A DNA stretch of 37,111 nt from assembly GCA_049190315.1 (NCBI GenBank), contig JAIVWD010000005.1, positions 1-37,111 of the forward strand, read 5' to 3'. A model generated the notes under the pieces. The model saw nothing but the letters and a program-made list of their open reading frames with translations, searched no databases and was not told the origin of the DNA. Of this stretch, positions 20,260 to 32,402 are shown in pieces. Source of the stretch: Deltaproteobacteria bacterium. Its GTDB lineage: Bacteria > Desulfobacterota > Desulfobacteria > Desulfobacterales > ETH-SRB1. A program made the position numbers and the translations under genes. The stretch's first letter is position 1. Each line of letters begins with the position of its first letter.

Positions 20260-20440
20260 AGGGCTCGGTAAAAAATAACTTGGCATTTTTACATCCCGAC
20301 TTCACCATATCTTTAACCGATCTTCATTCGCAAAAATCCTCGAAATAGCTCGCTATTCCTGCGGTTTTGCTCAATTAGATCAATTAAATCTACGGCAAAT
20401 TTGGGCGCAAATTCTACCAACTTATTTTTGACCGAGCCCT
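20260..20440. mobile_element. MITE (IS5-like termini), copy 1, between the two convergent EPS arms
   Basis: AGGGCTCGGTAAAAAATAACTTGG / CCAACTTATTTTTGACCGAGCCCT TIRs flanked by TA on both sides; near-identical inverted copy from 37008. Confidence 0.85.
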
Positions 20441-21366
20441 TATTGCCCTAAAGAAACAAGAATCTTTTTTATTCTCTTTTTTAGTTCTCTCCACGATGGA
20501 AATATTCCATGTAATTGGGCAACCATTTCATTAAGCGTGGCATCATCTGAGACTGCCATAACCTTCAAGGCGTAAACGTTTGTATTGAGTGTATTCCATC
20601 CAACATCGACAGTCCTGGCGGATTGGTAGCCGGCTTTTTGCAAATAATCTATTTCACGGTCACCATAATCGCCGTTCGGATAGGCAAAGTGGGTTACCGG
20701 CGAGTTCAAGATATTCTCTAAGTCCTCTTTGGCGCCGACAATTTCCTGTAAGCTAAGGTCATCAGAGCACCTGACCAGAATAGGATGGGTACGAGTATGG
20801 CTTTGAAAGTCGATACCATTATGTTTCATTTCTAATATTTCTTTGATCGACAAGGCCTGTCGAACAGTGAATTCTTTTTCCGGGGTATAACCATTGAATG
20901 AAAAGAGTTTTTTGAGACGAACCGAGTTCGGCAGTTCCTTGAGTTGCTTTGCCTGTTCGGTAAAATCAATAAACCAATAATGGCGAGATGTACCAACTAT
21001 CTGGGAACAGATGTATATTGTAACCGGAACGTTATATTTTTCAAGCACCCCTAATATAGAGAAGTTCCGCTTATGTCCATCGTCGAATGTGATTATCAGA
21101 CTTTTGGGAGGAATCATTTGTCGGTCGTTGCTTCGAATAGCGTCAACGAGACGTTGTAAGGAAATAATAGTAAAGTGTTTTGTTATATAGGCCAGGTGGC
21201 TCTCAAGTATGTGAGGCTCCGGGGCATGGTACATTATGATGGTTGCTTTTGTACGGCAGATTGTTTCCCTGATCAGGAGAGCCAACCCTGAGTACCGTAT
21301 TAAGAAGGCAAGAAATCTCCTCATTGTTTGTCCCTTAATTAGAAAGGTTCTTATCGTTTTAATCAA
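20440..21366 (-). CDS. Polysaccharide deacetylase (CE4, IcaB/PgaB-like)
   Basis: IIMYH, ITFDDG, SHTRTH, FAYPNG. Confidence 0.9.
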   Translation of the reverse strand: MIKTIRTFLIKGQTMRRFLAFLIRYSGLALLIRETICRTKATIIMYHAPEPHILESHLAYITKHFTIISLQRLVDAIRSNDRQMIPPKSLIITFDDGHKRNFSILGVLEKYNVPVTIYICSQIVGTSRHYWFIDFTEQAKQLKELPNSVRLKKLFSFNGYTPEKEFTVRQALSIKEILEMKHNGIDFQSHTRTHPILVRCSDDLSLQEIVGAKEDLENILNSPVTHFAYPNGDYGDREIDYLQKAGYQSARTVDVGWNTLNTNVYALKVMAVSDDATLNEMVAQLHGIFPSWRELKKRIKKILVSLGQ

Positions 21367-21387
21367 CCTGCGCAGGATGGATTCGGT

Positions 21388-22644
21388 TCAGAGAGGTGAC
21401 TCTTTGTTCTGCTCACTTTTGCTATATGAAACGGTATAACCAGCCAAAAAAAAGAAAAGAAAAACCATGAGATTTAAGTCGATAGTCTGAAAATAAAAGA
21501 ATGATAAGGCGAAAATAGTAATCATTGTTAACATGCCCAATGAAAAGGTGCCGATAAAATCAGATCGTTTGCAAAGTTTTATAGCATCCCAAAAAATCAT
21601 CAATACCAGGAAGAAGAAAATAAGCGTCCCTAAAATACCGATCTCCCAGAAAAGCTTTGTAATCGAAACCTCACCCACCTTATACATCTCGGCTTCTCGT
21701 GAATATTTTCCGGTCATAGCCTTTGTGAACGAGATGGAAACATTGCCGACACCATGTCCAAAAAGTATTTGCGGGCCTCGTAATGCCTTATCAATCGCAT
21801 AAAAAATGGGGTCGATTCGCTCGGCCATATATTTTTCGACCCGGCTTTGATCCGTAACAAAACGGGTGATACCATGCCCCCATCGTTTCATCTGAAAATG
21901 GTCATAAATATTTTTCAGGGTAAAGCCAACTACGGAAAATAACACAATAAGAAAAACGGCTTTCATAATAGTCTTTCTTTGTTTTTTGAGAAAGATCAAA
22001 GGAAAAATAAAGGCTAACGGTAAGAGCACAAAGGTAACCTTGGTCTCATTTAAGGTTGTGGGTAAAAAGACAATGCATATTGAAATAAGAAAAAAACGTA
22101 AGGAGATCTTTTCCATGAGGTAAAATGCTATAAGAAAAGAGATTACCCAGATCAAAAAAATAGACAATATTCCTGTGGCGCCATAGCCAAGGGTGCCGCC
22201 CATTGGATCTCCTGACAAAGATTCTTTGAACTCGTAGAAACGCTGCCAGACAACAACCGGTAATTGCGTACAGGCCAGGACAAGGATGAACAGAAGTATT
22301 TTCTTCATCGAAGCATCCTCGAACTTGAAAACAGCAGGAAGGAGAAAAAGTGGAATAAATTTAAAGTAGGTTCTTATGCCGGCGAGTATTGTTCCCAAGG
22401 GGACGTCATTGAGAAATAATCCCATACATATATGTAAAAAATAGATCAGGAGAAGAATGACATATTTAATAGGGATGTTTATTTTTTCATGGGTTGCTGC
22501 AATCACCAGAATATAAAAGGCTGTTACAGCGGAGACTATCTCTGGAATCCAGGTAACAAAGCGGATACCAATACCGTAGACTTCAAAGAGCCAATCAAAA
22601 ACAAATATACTGGAGAATAGGATATAAATAAGAAGGTTAATCAT
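21388..22644 (-). CDS. Wzy-like polysaccharide polymerase / O-antigen ligase-like membrane protein
   Basis: About 10-11 TM helices, GGTLG loop, LFGHGVG and WEIGILG; lies directly after the PCP/kinase genes. Confidence 0.65.
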   Translation of the reverse strand: MINLLIYILFSSIFVFDWLFEVYGIGIRFVTWIPEIVSAVTAFYILVIAATHEKINIPIKYVILLLIYFLHICMGLFLNDVPLGTILAGIRTYFKFIPLFLLPAVFKFEDASMKKILLFILVLACTQLPVVVWQRFYEFKESLSGDPMGGTLGYGATGILSIFLIWVISFLIAFYLMEKISLRFFLISICIVFLPTTLNETKVTFVLLPLAFIFPLIFLKKQRKTIMKAVFLIVLFSVVGFTLKNIYDHFQMKRWGHGITRFVTDQSRVEKYMAERIDPIFYAIDKALRGPQILFGHGVGNVSISFTKAMTGKYSREAEMYKVGEVSITKLFWEIGILGTLIFFFLVLMIFWDAIKLCKRSDFIGTFSLGMLTMITIFALSFFYFQTIDLNLMVFLFFFLAGYTVSYSKSEQNKESPL

Positions 22645-22658
22645 TTAAAAGAATAGTA

Positions 22659-23357
22659 TTAAAATATGTTATAAAACCAGGCGGGAATTACCTGAACAAC
22701 ATTGTTGAGGATAACGCCGCCAATAAAACATTCATTGGCAATAAGCATATTTTTGGCTTTTTCAGCTACCTCCTTCTGTAAACTTAAGGACTTTATAACC
22801 ATAAATGTAACATCTGAAGCTATTGCAGTAGAAAGTGAGTCCGCTGAAGTGAGGACTGGCGCTGAATCGATAAAGATGTAGTCATACCGGTCACGTATTT
22901 CGGTGAGTAATTCAGCAAGTCGTTCTTGCTCTATGCTACCGGATAGAGAGTTAAATTCTTTTCCACAAGACAATAAAAATATTTTGTCAGAATCAATGGG
23001 CTGCACGGTTTCGCTCAGACCTTGGCCACCCTTTAATAGATCAGTTAATCCTCGTTGATGAGATAAATTGAATATTGTATGTAAGGCTGGATTTTGAAAG
23101 TTGGCATCTATAAGCAGTATTTTTTTGCCAATATTTTTTTTAGCTATGTAATTTGTCAGGTTGGCGAGAATAGTCGATACCCCCTCTTTCCCACGGGTAC
23201 AGACGAAGTTAAAAACTTTATAAGCGTTTTTGTTGTTAAAAAAGATTATCTTTTTTTCAAGATCGCCAATTTGTTGCCTGTTCTTCAAGTCCAGGAATCG
23301 CCCACCTGATTTTGGTGGTCCTTCACTTTTTAACATTGCCTCATATGTTCTTGCCAT
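22659..23357 (-). CDS. CpsD/CapB-family BY kinase domain, probably a pseudokinase
   Basis: TRGKEGVST (Walker A lacking Lys), LLIDANF, GLTDLL, YDYIFIDSAP, GVILN. Confidence 0.85.
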   Translation of the reverse strand: MARTYEAMLKSEGPPKSGGRFLDLKNRQQIGDLEKKIIFFNNKNAYKVFNFVCTRGKEGVSTILANLTNYIAKKNIGKKILLIDANFQNPALHTIFNLSHQRGLTDLLKGGQGLSETVQPIDSDKIFLLSCGKEFNSLSGSIEQERLAELLTEIRDRYDYIFIDSAPVLTSADSLSTAIASDVTFMVIKSLSLQKEVAEKAKNMLIANECFIGGVILNNVVQVIPAWFYNIF

Positions 23358-23387
23358 TGCCGGGTGTCTCCATTAATTGTCTCGTAA

Positions 23388-24848
23388 TTATTTAATTTCG
23401 GAAAAGCTGCTGATAACGGGTAATGATAGAAGTATTTCTACATCGTCGGCTGTTTTCAGCCTATGGTCCAGTGCTTCAAGGATAAATGGAGTGCAAAGTG
23501 CAGCCAAAAGCCCTAAGTAAATAGAAATAAACAGCAGTAGCATTTTATTTGGCCAAACAGGATTACTTGAAGCACGGGGATGGTCGGCTATTGTTACGTT
23601 GGCCAGGTCCCGGTTTCTCTGTTCCGAGTAAACACGAGAGTCTTCGGTTTTTGAGGCATATAAAATGTAGTTGTTTTTATTAAGATCGACATTTCTTTTT
23701 AATTCTTGAAGCCTCTGTTCGTTTTCTTGAAGCTTGTTGGCTATAGCTTTCAATTGCATGATTTTTTTCTGCAGTGATCGCTTTTTCATCCCGAGACTTG
23801 CAAGTTCCAGCTCATCTGTTTTTATTGCCCTGAGCACCACATTGCGAATGTCATTTTCAATCATTTTTATCTGGCCGTTAATTTCTTGATATTCTCGACT
23901 GGTTTTCGTAAAATTTTTATTTATTTCACTTCGTTTTATAAAAAGAGGAACCATCCCTTTTTCCAGCTCAAAGATTGCAGGTATCATTCGCATTTCTTTG
24001 GTTATCAGTAGTTCATTATTATTAGAGAAAGCATTAGTTAAAAGTTCGATCCGGCTTTTTGCTTCATCGTAAACTATTTCAAGCAGATGTAATTCCTTGG
24101 TTAATTCGGCCAGAAGGGTAATATTCGCTAAATTCTGTTTGTCTATGTCTACAATATTCAGATTTTTTTTAAATTCTTTGAGTTCTCGTTCGGCATCTTC
24201 AAGCTTTATCTTATAGTTCATAGCCTGGTCGTTATAGAATTTTTGCCCCTCATCTATACTAAATACGGCATTATGGTGTTTGATGTATATTTGCAAAAGT
24301 CTATTTAAGACAGTTGTGGCTCTTTCGGGATCTTGTGCCTCGAGACTGACGAAAATTATACTCGATGAGAATACCGCTTCAATTTCCAGTGAGTTTTTTA
24401 AAAGAGATACTTGTGCTTCAAGAGGAGTAAGTGCTTTATCTTTCAGATTTATCAGGACGAGAATAAAATCAATTACATCACCGATGAAATCTGTTATTTT
24501 GTCAAAAACTCGTTTTTTTTCAGAGAGCCCCAACTTCTCATCTTCAAAGGACATAACGGTTTCTTCAAGAACACTGTCGCTTTGAATTAACTCAATCTCA
24601 GTATTAACATCTTCTTTTGTTGCAGCGCTGATGATTTGCCTCTCGTCTTCACCTGCGGTAATGACAACGTTTTGGTTGGTTTTGGGAAGAAGTATGACTT
24701 TAGCTGTACTTTTATAAACCGGAGTAGTGGTATATGCATAAAACATTATAGCGCCGACGATCAGGATAAAAACCTTGATCGCATGTGGCTTCCAGTAAAA
24801 CCAGATACGAAAGAAATCCCTTGCAGATTTTAATTTTGTAATAGCCAT
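23388..24848 (-). CDS. Polysaccharide co-polymerase (Wzz/GumC/Wzc N-terminal type)
   Basis: Two TM helices flanking a coiled coil; PVYKSTAKV, NTEIELIQS, PVWPNK, EALDHRLKTADDVE..L.LPV. Confidence 0.88.
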   Translation of the reverse strand: MAITKLKSARDFFRIWFYWKPHAIKVFILIVGAIMFYAYTTTPVYKSTAKVILLPKTNQNVVITAGEDERQIISAATKEDVNTEIELIQSDSVLEETVMSFEDEKLGLSEKKRVFDKITDFIGDVIDFILVLINLKDKALTPLEAQVSLLKNSLEIEAVFSSSIIFVSLEAQDPERATTVLNRLLQIYIKHHNAVFSIDEGQKFYNDQAMNYKIKLEDAERELKEFKKNLNIVDIDKQNLANITLLAELTKELHLLEIVYDEAKSRIELLTNAFSNNNELLITKEMRMIPAIFELEKGMVPLFIKRSEINKNFTKTSREYQEINGQIKMIENDIRNVVLRAIKTDELELASLGMKKRSLQKKIMQLKAIANKLQENEQRLQELKRNVDLNKNNYILYASKTEDSRVYSEQRNRDLANVTIADHPRASSNPVWPNKMLLLFISIYLGLLAALCTPFILEALDHRLKTADDVEILLSLPVISSFSEIK

Positions 24849-24869
24849 ATTAAACTACCTTTAAATTTT

Positions 24870-25886
24870 TTATAATGGACTGTGGTCTAATAAAGTTCCG
24901 CCAATATTATAGTCTGCACTGAAGAAGTCAGGAACCATTCCGTTTATGTATTGTTCAACAAAGAGATTTCTTCTGGCAATGGCGGTTTTGGGAACATATA
25001 CCACATCGTACTGATTGAGAATGATGTCCTGACTGACGTTTCCATAATAAAGGATTTTTTCAAGGTTTACTAATCTGCCCCAGGGTCGTCTTTCTTTATC
25101 GCGGCTGATAATGAGAATTGTTCTTCTATCACCACTATCTAAGGGGCCGCCTGCCCTGGAGAGAATCTGAGTTACCGTTATCTGTCCTTCCATCAAATAA
25201 TAGTCAGGTTTAGCGACCTCACCCATTACATAAACCAGGTTTGCTTTCATAACCTTCAAAATGATGGAGACGGTAAGATTGTCAATGAGTTTCTTATATT
25301 CGGCTGTGACTATGGCTTTTAACCGGGGTATGGTCTTACCTTTTGCCAGTATGTCATCGAGCATTGGAAAAGAAAGATATCCATCCGGCCTCACGGTCGT
25401 GAGCTTACTTTGACCGCGGGGAGCGGTAGTGATCGCTATTTTCAAGTGGTCAATTGCCCTGTTGTATTTAATTAAGGTTATGGTGATCACAGGATCCTTG
25501 AAATCTTCACTATAGAGTTTTGTGAGTTTTTCTTGTAATTGACTGGGAGTCAAGCCTAATGCATACACGTCACCCTTGCGGGGCATGGAGATGTTTCCGT
25601 CTGGTCTGATCGTAAGTTCGCGGTCGATATTCCCGTGATAAGTAAATTCAACCCTGAGGACATCGCCGACCGATAAGTAGTATTCCTTGGTGTCCGGTTT
25701 TGGTGTGTAGTGATAGATGATTTCAATTACATCTCCGGGGCCGACTTCGTATTCATATTCGACTCTGGGCATTGGGGGGCTATAGACAGTATCTTCTGAG
25801 ATGCCGACCTCGGCGGGACCAGCACAGGATAAGCAAAAGAATCCTATAGTTAACAGAGCGATAGCGGTTTTGAGATTTTGGATCAT
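24870..25886 (-). CDS. OPX/Wza-family polysaccharide export lipoprotein
   Basis: Lipobox LSC; two PES-like motifs (IRPDGNISMP, VRPDGYLSFP); SLBB VYVMGEV; DVVYVP. Confidence 0.9.
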   Translation of the reverse strand: MIQNLKTAIALLTIGFFCLSCAGPAEVGISEDTVYSPPMPRVEYEYEVGPGDVIEIIYHYTPKPDTKEYYLSVGDVLRVEFTYHGNIDRELTIRPDGNISMPRKGDVYALGLTPSQLQEKLTKLYSEDFKDPVITITLIKYNRAIDHLKIAITTAPRGQSKLTTVRPDGYLSFPMLDDILAKGKTIPRLKAIVTAEYKKLIDNLTVSIILKVMKANLVYVMGEVAKPDYYLMEGQITVTQILSRAGGPLDSGDRRTILIISRDKERRPWGRLVNLEKILYYGNVSQDIILNQYDVVYVPKTAIARRNLFVEQYINGMVPDFFSADYNIGGTLLDHSPL

Positions 25887-25927: not shown

Positions 25928-27550
25928 TTATTTTTTTTCATTTAAAAACGGCAGAAATCTGAAATCAAGATTTTTTAGTGCTTTTTTAGCTTCATTTCTA
26001 TCTGAAAAAATATCCATATAAACTCTGAAGACTAAATTTTGACCCTGCCGGGAAGGTATAAAAAATGCATCTTTGCCATTTGTCAGTAATCTTTGGGTGG
26101 CCTTTTGAGCAGACCTGAAATTATAAAACGAGGCATAATGAATATGATAGGTGTTACCTTCTCCTGTTACAATCATGGAATCTTTGGTGATCTGCGGCAG
26201 CACTATTTTTTGGCCACAATAGATCTGATGGACATTTTTTATGTTATTGTTTGCCATTTGAATGAGATCGATTACGGTCTCAGAAGTCGATCCATACTCT
26301 GCTAAAGCAACGGAAGTAAGCCATTCATTAGGCTGAATAGTCTGTACTTTTTCAGGTAGCTCCGAACTTGCAATATCGTTTGGCCGGGATAGAATAGTTT
26401 TTGCTGAAGAACTAAAATCCTTCCTTGCCATCGTAACACTATCAGGTGATATCTGGATCACCTTCTTTTTGAGGGTTTCTTGGCTGCTTTGTCCAACCGT
26501 CCTTACAGGACTAACTTGGCCCCCTATCTCATCCAGAGAAGAAGGGTCTGAGAACTTTGCGGCTATAATAGGTATGGACTTGCTTGCTGAGCGGTTGTCT
26601 AACGAGCGATTTGTCACAGTACGGAGGTCTTCGCTATTTGTGAAACCACTGATCCTCATTATTACAAGCAACAATAGAGCTATGCCGGCAAAAGCCCATA
26701 CTCTCCGTCTTACGTAGAAAAATGAAAGATAATTTCGATACTTTTGGGAACCCGTCCGCATGTCACTGATCACTTCTTTAATAATCTTTCTTTTAATAAT
26801 TCCGGCTTCAAGGGCATAGCCGATAAGAAGTGCGTTATCGCATATCTGATTAATCAGCCTGGGGGTTCCGCCGCTTACTTTCCAGATCAGGGACAATGCA
26901 TTGTCATTAAAGAGTTGATGCGAGCGGTCGACTATTTTTAAGCGGTGCAGAATATATTCTATGGTTTCTTTTTTATCCAATGGATTGAGTTGGCGATTTA
27001 TAACTATACGTTGTTTGAGAGGCTTTTGGGTTTCTCTGTCCAATAAATTATGTATTTCATTTTGGCCGACCAGGACTATTTGAATGAGTTTAATTGTGTT
27101 GTTCTCAATATTGGACAAAAGTCTTATTTCTTCCAGGGATTTTTTCGAGAGCAGATGGGCCTCGTCAATGATGATCACGGCACGTCGGCCTTCCTCATTA
27201 AGAGTCTCCAGCTTGCTGCGCAGCATGTCAATGGTTTGGAGACGGTTTTTCCCCTCAATCGTTACTCCCAGCATTTGAACAAGATGGTTAAAGATATCGT
27301 CAAATGTGATCCGTGGATTGATGATATTGATAACGATATGGCGAGGATTCAGTTCTTTTAAAAGAGAGCGGATCAGGGTGGTTTTTCCGGTGCCGACATC
27401 CCCGGATACAAGGATAAACCCTTTGGCCGACTCTATCCCGTATAAAAGAGAAGATAATACCTCTCTATGTTGTTTTGACAGGAAGAGAAACAAAGGATCT
27501 GGCGTGTTCTCAAAAGGTTTATTTGACAGGTTATAGTACCTTGTATACAT
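25928..27550 (-). CDS. ExeA-like AAA+ ATPase with TM segment, LysM-like and SPOR-like domains
   Basis: PFENTPDPLFLF, GDVGTGKTT, IIDEAH, LVGQ, SGGTPRLINQICD; C-terminal LysM-like (IQPNEWLTSVA...IYCGQKIVLP) and SPOR-like (YHIHYASF...FRVY) segments. Confidence 0.85.
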   Translation of the reverse strand: MYTRYYNLSNKPFENTPDPLFLFLSKQHREVLSSLLYGIESAKGFILVSGDVGTGKTTLIRSLLKELNPRHIVINIINPRITFDDIFNHLVQMLGVTIEGKNRLQTIDMLRSKLETLNEEGRRAVIIIDEAHLLSKKSLEEIRLLSNIENNTIKLIQIVLVGQNEIHNLLDRETQKPLKQRIVINRQLNPLDKKETIEYILHRLKIVDRSHQLFNDNALSLIWKVSGGTPRLINQICDNALLIGYALEAGIIKRKIIKEVISDMRTGSQKYRNYLSFFYVRRRVWAFAGIALLLLVIMRISGFTNSEDLRTVTNRSLDNRSASKSIPIIAAKFSDPSSLDEIGGQVSPVRTVGQSSQETLKKKVIQISPDSVTMARKDFSSSAKTILSRPNDIASSELPEKVQTIQPNEWLTSVALAEYGSTSETVIDLIQMANNNIKNVHQIYCGQKIVLPQITKDSMIVTGEGNTYHIHYASFYNFRSAQKATQRLLTNGKDAFFIPSRQGQNLVFRVYMDIFSDRNEAKKALKNLDFRFLPFLNEKK

Positions 27551-27563
27551 AAGCCTCGAAGCC

Positions 27564-27664
27564 GGTTTCAGAGTTCAAAGGTTCAGTTTGTGCTTTTCAT
27601 ATCAATCTTCATTGCTTTCTAACCTTGAACCGTGAACCTTGGAACTTTGAACCTGGGTAGTTAC
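27564..27664. repeat. Heptamer (CCTTGAA/CCGTGAA) inverted array ending in a TGGGTAGTTAC terminus
   Basis: GTTTCA-GAGTTCA-AAGGTTCA ... CCTTGAA-CCGTGAA-CCTTGGA-ACTTTGA-ACCTG-GGTAGTTAC; the right end resembles the terminus of the 18098 MITE. Confidence 0.65.
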
Positions 27665-27709
27665 ATTATTTCAATTGCAATTTTTCCTGGTATATTGATC
27701 GCTTTTCCC

Positions 27710-29026
27710 CTATTTACTGAATTTAAACTCAATACGCCTGTTTAAAGCCCGTTCTTCCGGGGTTTCGTTGCCGGCCTTCGGGATGGTAAAAGAATGCCAG
27801 CTTATTGACAATCTTTCAGATGAGATACCTTTTTCCAGAAGATAATTCAGACCCGCCTGGGCGCGCTTTTTAGAAAGTTGGACATTGTATTCCATGGTGC
27901 CGAAATTATCTGTATGGCCCCTTATCTTCAGCTTCAAGAACGGATGCTTATTGAGCATTTCCACCACTTTGTTAAAGATGGCATGACCTTCAGGCTTAAG
28001 GTTGTATTTATCAAAGTCAAAAAGAACGTCCGCTAAGACTACCAGTTTCCAGCAGCCATTTTCATCAACCTTAAGTTCAGAGGGAGTGTCAGGGCATAGG
28101 TCCTTGTCATCCGTTACCCCGTCGCCGTCACTGTCCGGAGGGCGTTTGGTTAGAAATACTTCCCTGACAAAATCATTCATGGCTTCCTGATTTAATAAGG
28201 TGTCGGCGTTTACTGCCAAACCGCATTGACCGGCATGGGCAATCCTTTGGAATAACTCTTTCCCTGCAGAGTCATTGCCGATCTGAATAGTGTATATACA
28301 TATGTTTTCGCCATATGCTGCTTTTAATTCTTCAGCCGCCAATACAGCTCTTTCATTCATGCCCTTGCCATCGCTTATGATAATAACGGCAATTTTTCCT
28401 TCCTTTGCAAACCAGTCTTTTATTGTAGCAAGAAGCGCGAGGTCAAGGGGACTGGCGCCGTTGACATCGATGATTTTTCTCAAAGCATGGCCGAATCCTT
28501 TTTTGGAATAGCTTTCCGGACCATGACTTCTCGTGGTGTAGAGTGGAGAACCGAATGTTCTGATAGCGCTGGTGAGTTCCAGGTCAGGTATGGTCTGGTT
28601 GAAACAGTAGATGATTTTTTTGGCAAATTTAAATTTGGTATATACATAGTCTTGATGACATTGCAGGCATTTTGAGGTTAGAGAACCATTTTGTTTGGCA
28701 ATCTTGTGGCCGCCATGGGTTACGGCATGCTGGTTTGCGAATTCCATCTCTTTGTACTGGGCATGACACGTGATACACTCGATCGAGGCCATATAGAGTT
28801 CGGTCATGGATGCAGAAGGGTCAAAGATAACCATGAAGTTGTCCACTTTTTTTACAAGGTCATCGGAAATCTCAATGGGTTTGCACTCATCAGTTTGAAC
28901 AAGATGGTAATTAGAATCAGGAGTAATTTTTTCCTTAGTGGTCGGTTGTGAATGGTGGGTGGGGCATCCGAAAAGAATTGTCAAGGTCAGGAGTAACACT
29001 GTTTTTAAAACAGATTCATAACGCAT
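27710..29026 (-). CDS. Lipoprotein: vWA domain with inserted two-CxxCH module, TSP3-like Ca-binding repeat and OmpA C-terminal domain
   Basis: Lipobox LFGC; MIDAS DPSAS and IIISDG; CITCH and CLQCH; DSDGDGVTDDKDLCP; FDFDK, GHTD, YNVQLSKKRA, NRRIE. Confidence 0.85.
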   Translation of the reverse strand: MRYESVLKTVLLLTLTILFGCPTHHSQPTTKEKITPDSNYHLVQTDECKPIEISDDLVKKVDNFMVIFDPSASMTELYMASIECITCHAQYKEMEFANQHAVTHGGHKIAKQNGSLTSKCLQCHQDYVYTKFKFAKKIIYCFNQTIPDLELTSAIRTFGSPLYTTRSHGPESYSKKGFGHALRKIIDVNGASPLDLALLATIKDWFAKEGKIAVIIISDGKGMNERAVLAAEELKAAYGENICIYTIQIGNDSAGKELFQRIAHAGQCGLAVNADTLLNQEAMNDFVREVFLTKRPPDSDGDGVTDDKDLCPDTPSELKVDENGCWKLVVLADVLFDFDKYNLKPEGHAIFNKVVEMLNKHPFLKLKIRGHTDNFGTMEYNVQLSKKRAQAGLNYLLEKGISSERLSISWHSFTIPKAGNETPEERALNRRIEFKFSK

Positions 29027-29085
29027 TGAAAAATCTCCAGTAAATTATTCATTTACGTTGTCAGAATGGTAATAAAGGCAATAAA

Positions 29086-29110
29086 CTCGAGGAGGCCTCG
29101 AGACTTTTTT
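29086..29110. terminator. Possible bidirectional intrinsic terminator
   Basis: CTCGAGG-AGG-CCTCGAG stem, followed by a T-tract on + and by TTTATT on -. Confidence 0.35.
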
Positions 29111-29147
29111 ATTCGCTGAAGAAATTTGTTCAATCTCGTTTGGGTCT

Positions 29148-29200
29148 GATTCCCCGCAGCTTGCTGCGGAACAGGATCCAAGGCTTGCCCTAGGGTTCAA
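29148..29200. repeat. GC-rich hairpin pair (REP-like or IS200/IS605-end-like)
   Basis: CCGCAGC-TT-GCTGCGG (29154-29169) followed by CCAAGGCTTGCCCTAGG. Confidence 0.45.
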
Positions 29201-29286
29201 ACCATTGATTTCTCATCATAGATGAATTTATTAAACTATTTTATGTTATGTTTTATGTCAAACAAAAAATATTCATTAAGAAAAAA

Positions 29287-30906
29287 TCAATCGTTTTCAC
29301 ATCTGTTGAGTCCTTCTTTTGCCCTGGCATAGAACTGATCATCTGAATGAGACTCCAGACATTTCTTATACTTTTGTATGGCCTCCTTGACTTGTCCCAG
29401 TTTTTCATAGCTCTGAGCCGCAAGAAAATTGGCATGCGGATACTGTGGTCCCAGCTTCAGAGCTCTTTTAGCCTCATGTAATGCCTCATCATACCTGGAT
29501 AGTGAAAAGTAGATTTCTCCCATTGTGTAGTAAACATCGGGGTATGACACTTTTTTAGACAAGAGGTATTCCCCATGCCTTAAGGCTTCCTGAAATTTGC
29601 CCAGATTCTTCAAAGTCTTGCACAGGTTAATGCGAGCCTGAACGTATTCCGGATTTAAACGAATCGCCTCGTGGAAGACCTTTTCAGCTTCCTTTGTTCG
29701 GTTTAGTCTTAGATACAGGGTTCCAAGGGTGTTATAGAGGTCCGGATATGTAGGATGTTGCTTCAAATAATCTTTAACAAGAGGAATGAACGTTTCCCAA
29801 AGTGACGTATCCTCTTTGGAAAATTCCTTTATCTTTATGAAAGAGAGCATTTCAGAAAACGTTGGCATGATATCTAAATGCTTATTAATTTCCTTTATTG
29901 CTTCCATAAGGGATTTATCACCACCGAGAATTTGGTCAAGTGCTTCAGATTTTTTTTTCCTATAATATGATGGTTTGGCGACTATATCGCGCATGGTGAG
30001 TATTGTACCCTTCAGGTTTTTATCATCAGGGTCAAGGCGACCAGCCCCCTCAAGTTCTTCCAGTGCCGCATCAAATTTTTCCTCACGGCAATATAGTATT
30101 GCAAGTTTTATTTTTGCATTCTTATAGTCGGGGTTAATCTGCAGCGATCGCTTAAAGCACTTAACAGCCTTGCCAATTTCATTACGACTTGCGAAAATGA
30201 TCCCCAAAAAATACTGTATATCTGAATATTCAGGAAATTTTTCATTCAAGAAGGAGAAGTTTTTGAGAGCTTCGTCAAATTTGCCCAAATAGGTTTGGGT
30301 GATCCCCAATTTTATTCGTGCATCCACGTAATTAGGGTTAATCTCCAGTGCCTTTTGAAATGCGTTTATAGCTTCGATAAGATTTGTCTCCCCCAAAAGG
30401 GCAAGACCCATATGAAAATGGACATCAGCATAATCGGGATGTTTTGTTAATATTTCTTTGTAAATTGACATAGCCCTATTCCACATTTTAAGATTATGGA
30501 GTGTGATTGCGAGCTTAAACTTGGTTGGCAGATGGTCCGGGTTGAACCGAAGAATATGGTTGAAAGCCTTTACAGCGTCTTTACACCTTCCAATATTATT
30601 CAAACAAACACCAATGAAGTAATAAAGATCAACATGTTCGGGGTTTAATTCAAGGGCCTTCTGAAATTTCTGGAGCGCACTTGAAGTATTACCGGTTGCA
30701 AAAAGCACAATCCCCAGGTTACGATACGCTTGAGCACGGTAGAACTGGGCCAGATTACGTTCAAGATTTAAAAATGGTGATTTTCTTTCTAATACATTTT
30801 GAAACTGTTCAATGGCTTCTCTGTACATATGGCGGTTGTAATAGTGCATCCCCTTTTGATAGCCTTTGTCTATGCCAAAATTAAACAAATGTTTTAAAAA
30901 GCTCAT
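29287..30906 (-). CDS. Tetratricopeptide repeat protein
   Basis: Many TPRs (ALELNPEHVDLYYFIG, YADVHFHMG, ALEINPNYVDARIKLG, YPDLYNTLG); no signal peptide. Confidence 0.92.
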   Translation of the reverse strand: MSFLKHLFNFGIDKGYQKGMHYYNRHMYREAIEQFQNVLERKSPFLNLERNLAQFYRAQAYRNLGIVLFATGNTSSALQKFQKALELNPEHVDLYYFIGVCLNNIGRCKDAVKAFNHILRFNPDHLPTKFKLAITLHNLKMWNRAMSIYKEILTKHPDYADVHFHMGLALLGETNLIEAINAFQKALEINPNYVDARIKLGITQTYLGKFDEALKNFSFLNEKFPEYSDIQYFLGIIFASRNEIGKAVKCFKRSLQINPDYKNAKIKLAILYCREEKFDAALEELEGAGRLDPDDKNLKGTILTMRDIVAKPSYYRKKKSEALDQILGGDKSLMEAIKEINKHLDIMPTFSEMLSFIKIKEFSKEDTSLWETFIPLVKDYLKQHPTYPDLYNTLGTLYLRLNRTKEAEKVFHEAIRLNPEYVQARINLCKTLKNLGKFQEALRHGEYLLSKKVSYPDVYYTMGEIYFSLSRYDEALHEAKRALKLGPQYPHANFLAAQSYEKLGQVKEAIQKYKKCLESHSDDQFYARAKEGLNRCEND

Positions 30907-30941
30907 TATCGCTTCTCCTATCCTACCGGTTGGCTGACTCT

Positions 30942-32402
30942 TTATCGTGCGCCCCTGCGCGAAAGGACGGCAGGGATTGTTTTTATAAGGATTTTCAAGT
31001 CAAGAGCAAACGACCATTTTTCAATATACATAAGGTCAAGTTTCATCCATTCATCAAACCTGATATCGTTTCTTCCACTCACCTGCCAGAGACAAGTTAT
31101 TCCCTGCTTCACAGATAGCCTCTTCTTTTCCCAAGGCCTATATTGGCGGACTTCCGTGAATATAGGCGGCCTTGGTCCAACCAGACTTATATCACCTTTG
31201 AGAACATTGAAAAGTTGGGGGAGTTCGTCCAGGCTTGTTTTTCGCAAAAATCGGCCGATCCGTGTCAAGCGCGGGTCATTTATAATCTTAAAGGCAGGGC
31301 CATCCATCTCGTTTAAATGCCACACTTTTTCCAGAAGCTTCTCTGCATCTGCGACCATCGAGCGGAATTTATACATGATAAAACGCCTGCCATGCTTGCC
31401 AATCCTTTCCTGGCGGAACAATATAGGACCAGGAGAATCCATCTTTATGAGAATGGGCATGACCACCCATAGGGGCAGGCAAAGAAAAATAAGAATGGCT
31501 GATGCCATAAAATCAAAAAGGCGTTTTATGAATTGTATTGTCGGATTTTGGAAAACATACTTAAGAAATACCATTGAAACACCCCCAAGATGTTCTACGA
31601 AAATATTTCCGTCCTCTTCTATATGAGTAGATGTGGTAAAGGCAAAATCCAGGCCTTCTGCCTTGCAACGTTGTACAACCATGTCTATCTTTGACAAGTA
31701 ATCTTTATTACCTTCAAAAAGAATACAGTCAACAACGTTATTCTTAAGAACGGCGTCCAAATGGTCTACTCTGCCGATAACAACATGATTCGAAATCCTG
31801 TCCCCAACCTTTTTCTTGCCATTTGAAAGAAACCCAACCACTCTCATGCCCCACTCAGGATGCGTATCAATGATATGAGCAGACTTTAAAGCCTTATCAT
31901 TTGTTCCAACGATTAAGACGAACTTTATGAGATTGCTTTTTCCCCGGTCATGCCGCATAAGCCAAGAAACAGACATTTTGTTGATGGCAAACAGAGGCCA
32001 TGAAAGGACAACAAACACGATTACAAAACAAATACTGCCCTTGAGAGCAGGGAACACAAACAAAAGAGCAAGAAAGATTCCAGCCATCAGCAAGCAGGGT
32101 ATTGCTGACCGAAGTAAAATCTTTTTGAAGTAAGGGCTGCTGGTATGATAGTCCCTGTAGACAAAGTAGATTTGGGCAATCGGTAACAGCAAAAGCAGAG
32201 GGACAAGATTCAAATACCGATTCCAGTAAAAAGGCAGGTCAAAACGGGTGAGATAGGAATGATGGGGTAGTGGAAACAGGTCGCCGGTCAGGTTCGTGAT
32301 TTCAAATGAGAGTGGGGCGCTGATAGCATATATAATAATAACAATTGCGTAATTTATTAACAACTGAAGTGGAGCAAAATATTCTTCCTGTTCTCTTAGC
32401 AT
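30942..32402 (-). CDS. Priming polyprenyl-phosphate glycosylphosphotransferase (WcaJ/WbaP family)
   Basis: Four N-terminal TMs, VLIVG Rossmann-like domain, KRLFD, YKFRSM, DPRLTRIGRFLRKTSLDELPQ, GPRP, GITCLWQVSGR. Confidence 0.93.
   Translation of the reverse strand: MLREQEEYFAPLQLLINYAIVIIIYAISAPLSFEITNLTGDLFPLPHHSYLTRFDLPFYWNRYLNLVPLLLLLPIAQIYFVYRDYHTSSPYFKKILLRSAIPCLLMAGIFLALLFVFPALKGSICFVIVFVVLSWPLFAINKMSVSWLMRHDRGKSNLIKFVLIVGTNDKALKSAHIIDTHPEWGMRVVGFLSNGKKKVGDRISNHVVIGRVDHLDAVLKNNVVDCILFEGNKDYLSKIDMVVQRCKAEGLDFAFTTSTHIEEDGNIFVEHLGGVSMVFLKYVFQNPTIQFIKRLFDFMASAILIFLCLPLWVVMPILIKMDSPGPILFRQERIGKHGRRFIMYKFRSMVADAEKLLEKVWHLNEMDGPAFKIINDPRLTRIGRFLRKTSLDELPQLFNVLKGDISLVGPRPPIFTEVRQYRPWEKKRLSVKQGITCLWQVSGRNDIRFDEWMKLDLMYIEKWSFALDLKILIKTIPAVLSRRGAR

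Follow-up and report, generated by a model that had tools for sequence, protein, structure and literature searches.

A putative c-type diheme module in the vWA domain of a predicted peptidoglycan-anchored lipoprotein encoded in an exopolysaccharide export cluster

A lipoprotein gene on the minus strand (27710-29026) of a 37,111-nucleotide stretch of DNA from a sulfate-reducer-type desulfobacterial genome (contig JAIVWD010000005.1, assembly GCA_049190315.1; the whole stretch is hereafter called the window) encodes 438 residues, among which a von Willebrand factor A (vWA) domain is interrupted by an insert that carries two CxxCH motifs. The insert probably holds two covalently attached c-type hemes, each ligated by a pair of histidines. 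As judged by sequence comparison, a c-type heme module appears to have been built into an anchor lipoprotein of the vWA-OmpA kind encoded in an exopolysaccharide (EPS) cluster, a combination that is undescribed in the literature searched. Taken singly, its parts are familiar: c-type cytochromes, vWA domains and peptidoglycan anchors of the OmpA type. Should the hemes prove real, the protein would offer a compact natural case of redox chemistry right beside a metal-dependent adhesion site, as well as a concrete candidate link between electron flow and matrix production in sulfate reducers, of which some live in cold seeps. Because an orthologue is present in the cultured bacterium Desulfobacula toluolica, the idea is directly testable. 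For cold seeps, the main text of PMC10553843 describes a proposed matrix with cytochromes through which partners would exchange electrons.

The insert and its invariant residues

The preliminary description of this DNA had placed two heme-c attachment motifs behind the sequence DPSASMTELY, and a reading of the minus strand bears this out to the nucleotide. DPSASMTELY is followed, in order, by CITCH (C84-x-x-C87-H88, 28763-28777), HAVTHGGH, CLQCH (C120-x-x-C123-H124, 28655-28669) and TKFKFAKK. Public collections also hold a 438-residue protein, P0001, that is 99% identical to the one in the window. A search of about 5.8 billion protein sequences returned 1056 relatives at E <=0.001 among the 8000 scored, and the best 120 of the 1056 were used for comparison. 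Exactly two CxxCH motifs at equivalent positions occur in 66 of the 120, which are 45-88% identical to the query; the other 54 have none and run from DxSxSM(x)E-xY straight into an xxTKFxxAK helix. As the insert-less rows of the alignment skip the intervening residues, the insert is delimited to approximately residues 79-129 (28640-28792), or about 50 residues. It sits in the β1-α1 loop, and its proposed location within a vWA domain is confirmed by the fold described below.

Seven residues of the insert are invariant across the 67 distinct insert-bearing rows, namely C84, C87, H88, H100, C120, C123 and H124, and they are the only ones. In the remaining insert columns the most frequent residue has a mean share of 0.50 and as many as 18 residue types are found, while the xx positions inside the CxxCH motifs take 6-13 types. 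The spacing from motif to motif is 36-37 residues in 60 of the 67 distinct rows and 51-58 in the other seven, the longer spacing arising from a variable loop behind a conserved GG. His100 (28727-28729), a candidate distal ligand between the two motifs, is His in all 70 insert-bearing rows used for column counts. A further candidate for a distal (sixth) ligand lies outside the insert, in the stretch that leads from the lipid anchor to the vWA domain: position 41 (28904-28906) is His in each of the 68 insert-bearing rows that cover it versus none of the 53 insert-less rows, and it is equally invariant in an alignment of 63 sequences.

The preliminary description had let its heme proposal hinge on histidine conservation among insert-bearing homologues, and H88, H124, H100 and H41 prove to be invariant throughout. 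Four histidines are the number needed for two bis-His hemes. We infer that H88 and H124 would serve as proximal ligands, with H100 and H41 the most likely distal ones. Other features expected of a cytochrome c are two CxxCH motifs, predicted export and a host that has maturation genes. An AlphaFold2 (AF2) model renders the insert as short helices with low confidence, and a search of the ESM Atlas with residues 38-132 retrieved unnamed clusters only (best score 0.81). Another histidine, H411, together with its neighbor W410, at first seemed specific to the insert-bearing clade and was considered as a heme ligand; it was rejected because the insert-less relative P0059 shares the WHSF motif.

Domain organization of the lipoprotein

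The N-terminus of the protein, MRYESVLKTVLLLTLTILFGC, terminates in a lipobox-like LFGC, so that signal peptide and lipobox span 28964-29026 and Cys21 is the predicted lipidation site. Cys21 is kept in 67 of 70 insert-bearing and 50 of 53 insert-less rows, and the Gly-Cys pair is conserved overall (G20 94%, C21 95%). The strict lipobox consensus is [LVI][ASTVI][GAS]C, from which the Phe at -2, seen by inspection only, falls outside. Across the family, lipoboxes are of an xxGC type (FSGC, LFGC, LSGC, LVGC and similar). Along with the putative lipobox, the protein has conserved pairs of cysteines, C243/C268 and C311/C325, of a kind typical for exported proteins, and on these sequence features it is predicted to be exported. 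The putative lipobox named in the preliminary description has a conserved cysteine.

The vWA domain, which resembles an integrin I-domain and spans residues ~57-296 (28139-28858) with the insert splitting it, was identified by fold. Pfam vWA models give no match on the query at E up to 1, nor on the C-terminal half of its vWA domain alone, and a phmmer search of the Protein Data Bank (PDB) with the vWA part of the insert-less orthologue in locus L007 gave no match. The insert-less relative P0059 clears the Pfam VWA model PF00092 with 35.9 bits against a cut-off of 23.8. The AF2 model, based on 63 relatives, has a mean predicted local distance difference test (pLDDT) score of 82.4 and exceeds 85 over most of both domains; it falls to 52-66 over residues 80-130 and below 50 over the linker at residues 20-39. 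For model residues ~54-296, vWA structures rank first in VIA-align (Z 17.4-19.9), including anthrax-toxin-receptor, TRAP, factor B and integrin I-domains. The closest is BatB (3ibs; Z 19.9, rmsd 2.4, 176 residues aligned), and Foldseek matches the model to 4jdu at E 1.4e-7.

Directly ahead of the insert lies the loop DPSASMT (28802-28822), which carries the D69-x-S71-x-S73 signature of a metal ion-dependent adhesion site (MIDAS). Two more residues, S192 and D219, we take to belong to the site from their position in the vWA fold. All five are present in 70 of 70 insert-bearing rows. The 53 insert-less rows have Asp at position 69 in 52 cases, Ser in 51 and Thr in one at position 71, Ser in 49 and Thr in three at position 73, Ser in 39 and Thr in 14 at position 192, and Asp at position 219 in all 53. 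The invariance of these residues beside the insert argues that the metal site is still under selection, and together with the modeled fold these residues indicate a vWA domain whose MIDAS is complete.

An Asp-rich linker resembling thrombospondin type 3 (TSP3) repeats (DSDGDGVTDDKDLCPDT..., 28049-28138) joins this domain to the C-terminal one. The Pfam TSP_3 match on the query is weak (E 0.017), and PF02412 is precomputed on many relatives; within the linker, C311 is found in 70 of 70 insert-bearing rows and C325 in 67. The C-terminal domain, residues 335-430 (27737-28024), is an OmpA-like peptidoglycan-binding domain, the only one on the query that clears its Pfam cut-off (PF00691, 71.2 bits versus 27.2, E 9.6e-20). 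Foldseek finds the OmpA, Pal and YfiB C-domains as best matches to the AF2 model. The motif GHTD...YN..LS..RA is invariant in the 63-sequence alignment, and it includes T372, D373 and R388, which correspond to the diaminopimelate-binding residues of OmpA-domain structures. NCBIfam matches on the query are at the level of domains and all fall under the family cut-offs (YiaD 103.2, PA1041 102.6 and Pal 69.6 bits). The gene is accordingly predicted to encode a lipoprotein tethered to peptidoglycan through its OmpA-like domain, as the preliminary description had it.

Evolution of the insert

In a first tree of 123 rows (120 of them different), calculated with IQ-TREE in quick mode under LG+G4 after removal of the insert columns, a branch with an SH-aLRT of 100 separates all insert-bearing rows and P0060 from the rest. 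The sampling was then widened to 1.84 billion representatives at 50% identity. This gave 165,030 relatives at E <=0.001, and CxxCH occurred in none of the 144 proteins that were new among the top 150 inspected. The enlarged tree, again without the insert columns, has a clade of 74 rows (SH-aLRT 100), 71 of which are of the heme type. Nested within it are three exceptions, P0143, P0224 and P0060. The branches of P0143 (0.69) and P0224 (1.29) are long relative to a median of 0.11, and the placement of such long rows is unsure. The sister lineages of the clade are insert-less proteins, the L007 orthologue among them.

The simplest reading of these trees is that the heme-type insert was gained once and then degenerated three times independently. 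P0143 looks degenerate: its 90% cluster stands alone with just two sequences, and its long branch lies within the heme-type clade. At the insert site P0224 instead has a loop of about 55 residues that is free of Cys and of low complexity, and P0068 has a short Cys-rich loop; the β1-α1 loop is an insertion hot spot of this vWA family. The insert-less P0059 lies outside the heme-type clade and is 57% identical to the window's protein overall, and its OmpA domain contains the stretch ERLSISWHSFTIP, identical to that in the window. P0059 may be a recombinant between both lineages.

The exopolysaccharide export cluster

The insert-bearing gene lies inside a Wza/Wzc-type EPS export cluster in all six genomes examined, so the suspected linkage of insert-bearing homologues to EPS loci holds beyond the window. 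The six are the window's own genome, that of locus L005 (labeled Desulfotignum) and four more (G401-G404) reached through contigs labeled Desulfobacterium, Desulfobacter and Desulfobacula and through one further contig. On the minus strand of the window the order is a priming glycosylphosphotransferase, a tetratricopeptide repeat (TPR) protein, the lipoprotein gene, an ATPase, an outer-membrane polysaccharide export (OPX) protein, a chain-length determinant, a tyrosine autokinase, a 418-residue protein and a deacetylase; the opposite strand of the cluster carries glycosyltransferases and a flippase. In the five further genomes, the gene stands between the ATPase and the run of OPX exporter, chain-length determinant, tyrosine kinase and 418-residue protein. 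This run is complete in L005, L242, L243 and L245, and that of L244 stops at a contig end. The ATPase adjoins the lipoprotein gene in all six genomes, in the window on the gene's other side.

By contrast, no EPS neighbor was found within flanks of ~1.5 kb at 28 of 29 insert-less loci from the same order, nor at three of three insert-less paralogues from the carrier genomes. The insert-less orthologue of L007 is found in the window's gene order, and its neighbors are 47-65% identical to those of the window. Its locus (L007:5162-11394), a bacterial-type EPS cluster with an insert-less vWA-OmpA gene, is on a contig labeled as a metagenome-assembled genome (MAG) of a Promethearchaeota archaeon, and is probably a mis-binned bacterial contig. 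Conserved adjacency to the genes for the OPX exporter and its polysaccharide co-polymerase (PCP), together with an ExeA-like ATPase whose tail is of a peptidoglycan-binding kind, suggests a protein that helps to anchor or position the machine. We consider it likely that the lipoprotein belongs to the EPS export machine in such an accessory role.

Individual neighbors, all on the minus strand, were assigned as follows. The TPR protein and the polyprenyl glycosylphosphotransferase (the priming enzyme; TIGR03025, 384 bits against a cut-off of 295.6) are encoded upstream at 29287-32402. The ExeA-like AAA ATPase (25928-27550), which ends in a SPOR domain, is recognized by Pfam AAA_22 and SPOR as well as by TIGR03015, and the OPX exporter (Poly_export, SLBB), chain-length determinant, tyrosine autokinase, 418-residue membrane protein and polysaccharide deacetylase occupy 20440-25886 by Pfam and NCBIfam. 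Scores against the NCBIfam families associated with XrtA all remain under their cut-offs: 260.2 versus 324.5 for TIGR03015, 126.7 versus 180 for TIGR03027, 109.4 versus 278.9 for TIGR03007 and 73.9 versus 230.7 for TIGR03018. With four neighbors scoring under curated cut-offs, the locus is related to the XrtA/PEP-CTERM system and is not a member by those models. An exosortase gene is present elsewhere in the genome, on contig C106.

Of the ATPase, only the first ~250-270 residues align in four of the five loci of Desulfobacteraceae type, while the alignment covers the full 540 residues in L244 and ~570 residues in L007; its periplasmic tail thus seems variable. The 418-residue protein (21388-22644) belongs to no Pfam or NCBIfam family. 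Copies that are 43-53% identical directly follow the tyrosine kinase in four other loci, and the consensus of the five sequences, in which a GRGAGN motif occurs, is highly hydrophobic. The protein probably crosses the membrane several times and may be a polymerase resembling Wzy. It had also been considered as an outer-membrane β-barrel partner of the short OPX protein, which was rejected because the consensus is strongly hydrophobic and polytopic-like instead. Near the contig start, on the minus strand as well, lies an IS1595-family transposase (190-1158; 193.8 bits versus a cut-off of 75), whose end is overlapped by a 243-residue open reading frame (ORF) without a family.

Between the TPR and lipoprotein genes (29044-29102) there are a terminator-like hairpin at 29086-29102 and a promoter-like site at 29072-29044 on the minus strand. 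Such hairpins and promoter-like sites are no commoner here than in shuffled sequence. Contigs from RNA libraries, described below, end near 29044-29102 and 27626-27668, which is a hint that the lipoprotein gene may be its own transcription unit.

Host genome and distribution

The host genome amounts to 3.27 Mb, split over 357 contigs; its G+C content is 41% and its completeness is given as 95.9%. Its isoleucyl-tRNA synthetase shares 90% identity with the enzyme of one deltaproteobacterial MAG, 65-75% with the enzymes of many Desulfobacterales MAGs and only ~60% with their counterparts in Desulfobacula and Desulfotignum. The genome is rich in cytochromes. At least two CxxCH motifs are found in 26 of 7999 ORFs (stop-to-stop, >=80 residues), with a maximum of 26 motifs, and the lipoprotein ORF is the sole one with exactly two. 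The largest multiheme ORFs have 26 and 16 CxxCH motifs on contig C10 and 20 on C126. For cytochrome c maturation there are four PF01578 genes, a ResB gene beside a CcsA-like gene and two copies of CcmE. The System II pair of ResB and CcsA lies on C50, whereas parts of System I, with CcmE beside PF01578 genes, lie on C10 and C281. Maturation genes together with many multiheme ORFs indicate that this host can mature c-type cytochromes.

The insert-type gene is patchily distributed. Among 401 genomes sampled from the window's order, a vWA-OmpA relative is present in 171, and the insert type in none but the window's own genome; the three genomes of the same genus that were searched gave no match. 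Three order-level genomes (G001, G308 and G390) seemed to have matches reaching into the insert region, and their sequences proved insert-less. In the family of the Desulfobacula-labeled genome, the insert type was found in 10 of 151 genomes, five of which were carriers already known. Each of five carrier genomes also has one or more insert-less paralogues. Most named carriers are Desulfobacula, Desulfotignum, Desulfobacter and Desulfobacterium. The orthologue of the cultured and sequenced Desulfobacula toluolica (CCK81804.1 / WP_014958992.1 / K0NBQ7) is annotated merely as OmpA/MotB-related.

Searches at the DNA level extend this picture. A locus search with the full alignment was dominated by matches to the OmpA domain and gave full-length matches only in L005 and L007. 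A degenerate DNA pattern for (I/V/L/M)FDPSASMT produced mostly chance matches and recovered the gene in five loci (L126, L169, L172, L176 and L228). Of 24 listed public runs, which come from 12 studies and are labeled as cold-seep or marine-sediment metagenomes, 20 contain DNA of the gene. RNA-library contigs cover the gene at >=95% identity in four runs from two cold-seep studies, two of the runs sharing one sample; they span, for example, 27626-28994 in run X15 and 27658-29210 in X17. One X17 contig is one base short at 28576, inside the gene, which may be due to faulty assembly or to a frameshift in a variant strain.

Proposed working and alternative readings

Domains of the vWA type bind their ligands at the MIDAS face, as in integrin I-domains, and bis-His hemes are usually of low potential. 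Because the insert emerges from the very β1-α1 loop that bears DxSxS, any hemes must sit on or beside this face. From these elements a working model can be drawn up in which the vWA domain would have gained a diheme module of about 50 residues in its MIDAS-forming loop. The OmpA domain would hold the lipoprotein to peptidoglycan and the lipid would hold it to a membrane, so that it could act as an accessory of Wza/Wzc-type (OPX/PCP) export, anchoring or positioning the machine in the wall. Low-potential hemes on the MIDAS face would track how oxidized or reduced the periplasmic cytochrome pool is, and their oxidation state would gate the binding of a partner, either in the export machine or an acidic polymer, to the vWA domain. 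Matrix export or envelope tethering could thereby be coupled to electron supply. For the ATPase next door, ExeA of type II secretion may offer an analogy.

Redox gating of MIDAS-face binding, taken as a whole mechanism, is our preferred reading and is put forward tentatively, at somewhat less than an even chance. A bolder version, in which the periplasmic redox state decides whether the anchored lipoprotein engages the export machine or the polymer with no transcriptional step in between, is doubtful. Such a heme-gated switch would wire matrix production and tethering directly to electron flow, and in cold seeps the redox state may reflect the supply from a syntrophic partner. Two points count against gating. 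A sensor role is suggested solely by the MIDAS-face position of the insert and by its gene context; and the RNA-library contigs give neither strand nor expression level and could stem from DNA carry-over.

The same evidence for heme binding would serve equally well if the hemes acted in the peptidoglycan layer as a fixed station for electron transfer, or reduced matrix or cargo, with the vWA domain merely a scaffold and docking site. The host, with its ORFs of 26, 20 and 16 CxxCH motifs, is rich in large multiheme cytochromes, the gene occurs in cold-seep metagenomes, and conductive matrices of EPS and cytochromes are proposed for syntrophic seep sulfate reducers in the main text of PMC10553843. 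We nevertheless regard such a station as rather unlikely. The cluster offers no partner cytochrome, the lipoprotein ORF being the only one on its contig with at least two CxxCH motifs, and an invariant MIDAS site would be needless in this role. Two hemes span only ~1-2 nm and cannot alone bridge the periplasm, and most of the named carrier genera are not known for extracellular electron transfer.

A different kind of alternative dispenses with heme altogether. The four cysteines could bind zinc in a ribbon or knuckle, or form two disulfides, and so brace a larger loop on the MIDAS face, with the histidines as extra ligands or structural residues. Several results weigh in this direction and against heme. 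Pfam cytochrome models are non-significant on residues 80-130, the best being PF22113 (MtrC domain II/IV), whose 14.1 bits (E 0.034) stay under its cut-off of 30, with c3_2 (PF14537, E 0.19) and c7 (PF14522, E 0.42) likewise under cut-off. A PDB sequence search with the insert is non-significant too; its best match, at E 0.36, aligns both CxxCH motifs to MtrC residues 535-587. When a six-sequence profile of the insert was compared to the PDB, a C2H2 zinc finger came first (E 0.13), followed by the diheme cytochrome DHC (E 0.5) and NrfA (E ~1), all non-significant. In the query, C84-x2-C87-x12-H100-x3-H104 fits the spacing of a C2H2 finger. The variant P0143 reads CEECY...H...CEECR: its four cysteines and the equivalent of H41 are kept while the motif histidines are replaced by Tyr and Arg, so that Cys-only chemistry, zinc or disulfides, can hold a version of this loop. 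Moreover, confidence in the modeled insert is low (pLDDT 52-66), the loop readily takes inserts of other kinds, as in P0224 and P0068, and two CxxC pairs ~36 residues apart are a common zinc-ribbon pattern.

What speaks for heme over these chemistries is the pattern of conservation. A Cys4 site needs no His after CxxC, yet H88 and H124 are invariant in 67 of 67 rows while the xx positions vary, and H41 and H100 are invariant as well, exactly matching two bis-His hemes. The ligand set of a C2H2 finger is incomplete across the family, for position 104 is Tyr in 37, His in 24, Phe in five and Arg in two of 70 rows. P0143, as noted, looks like a degenerate derivative from inside the heme-type clade. 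In the AF2 model, C84-C87 and C120-C123 fall within short helices, which is the rule for CxxCH but not for zinc knuckles, a weak argument at such low confidence. On balance, a site without heme is unlikely.

If bound, the hemes could still be structural, a cofactor-stabilized loop selected for folding or stability without a redox function. The insert was lost or degenerated three times (P0060, P0143, P0224) while the rest of the protein was kept, and the insert-less orthologue of L007 holds the same place in its cluster; these observations suggest that the core job of the protein needs no hemes. Set against a purely structural role, which we judge quite improbable, is that 71 of 74 clade members keep every residue of the heme signature at 45-88% identity, with two of the three exceptions on long branches, and that the maturation of two hemes would be a costly way to brace a loop. 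The last alternative, that the motifs arose by chance in a variable loop and have no function, has a negligible probability, since the genome-wide rarity of such ORFs (26 of 7999) and invariance amid variable columns over 67 distinct sequences of a single-gain clade exclude chance.

Comparison with known systems

The gating proposal and the heme module itself can be set against several known systems. At the level of the locus, the closest are EPS clusters of the XrtA/PEP-CTERM and Xap types, whose ATPase, exporter, chain-length determinant and tyrosine kinase the window's neighbors resemble. No vWA-OmpA or cytochrome component of such clusters is mentioned in the available text of PMC5539420 or in the main text of PMC10553843. 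The latter treats the polysaccharide clusters of sulfate reducers from seeps, along with a conductive matrix, and cites earlier work by which cytochrome localization in Geobacter depends on the Xap polysaccharide; the terms 'von Willebrand', 'vWA', 'peptidoglycan' and 'diheme' are absent from its main text, its supplementary tables on polysaccharide clusters and adhesins lying outside this check. The available text of PMC5539420 records OmpA/OmpF homologues in SEEP-SRB1 genomes and nothing further on such anchors, and PMC13647500, as far as its available part goes, concerns Cyc2 and is unrelated. A heme motif in a vWA-OmpA protein is undescribed in the full-text literature searched, from which subscription-only papers are excluded, and a heme-c module in a vWA MIDAS loop does not occur as a combination among the Pfam or NCBIfam matches to the query.

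The anchors of the Pal, PA1041/Pba, YiaD and YfiB families share the lipid anchor and the C-terminal OmpA-like domain with the lipoprotein, but have neither a vWA domain nor heme motifs. According to the available part of PMC13442872, OmpA-like anchors control vesiculation and cytochrome cargo in Geobacter.

With respect to its vWA domain, the protein has the same fold as BatB (3ibs), the vWA domain of the anthrax toxin receptor and integrin CR3 (1ido), with Z scores of 17.5-19.9 and rmsd values of 2.3-2.8 over 162-176 aligned residues and the same DxSxS...S/T...D site. Identity to these domains is 11-19%, and a heme-binding β1-α1 insert was found in none of the known vWA or I-domains by full-text literature searches. 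The insert in turn recalls bis-His cytochromes such as c3/c7, domain IV of MtrC and NrfA, with which it shares CxxCH motifs ~36 residues apart, a histidine between them and ~25 residues per heme. The similarity is non-significant (E 0.03-1), and here the motifs form a loop insert in an α/β fold with one presumed ligand, H41, outside the insert.

The nearest relatives overall are the insert-less vWA-TSP3-OmpA lipoproteins of Desulfobacterales (P0059, P0071 and that of L007), which are 30-57% identical and likewise have a putative lipobox, a MIDAS-complete vWA domain, a two-Cys linker and an OmpA domain. Against this shared background, what sets the window's protein apart is the insert, the histidine at position 41 and, since these relatives mostly lie away from EPS genes as judged by flanks of ~1.5 kb, its place in an EPS export cluster.

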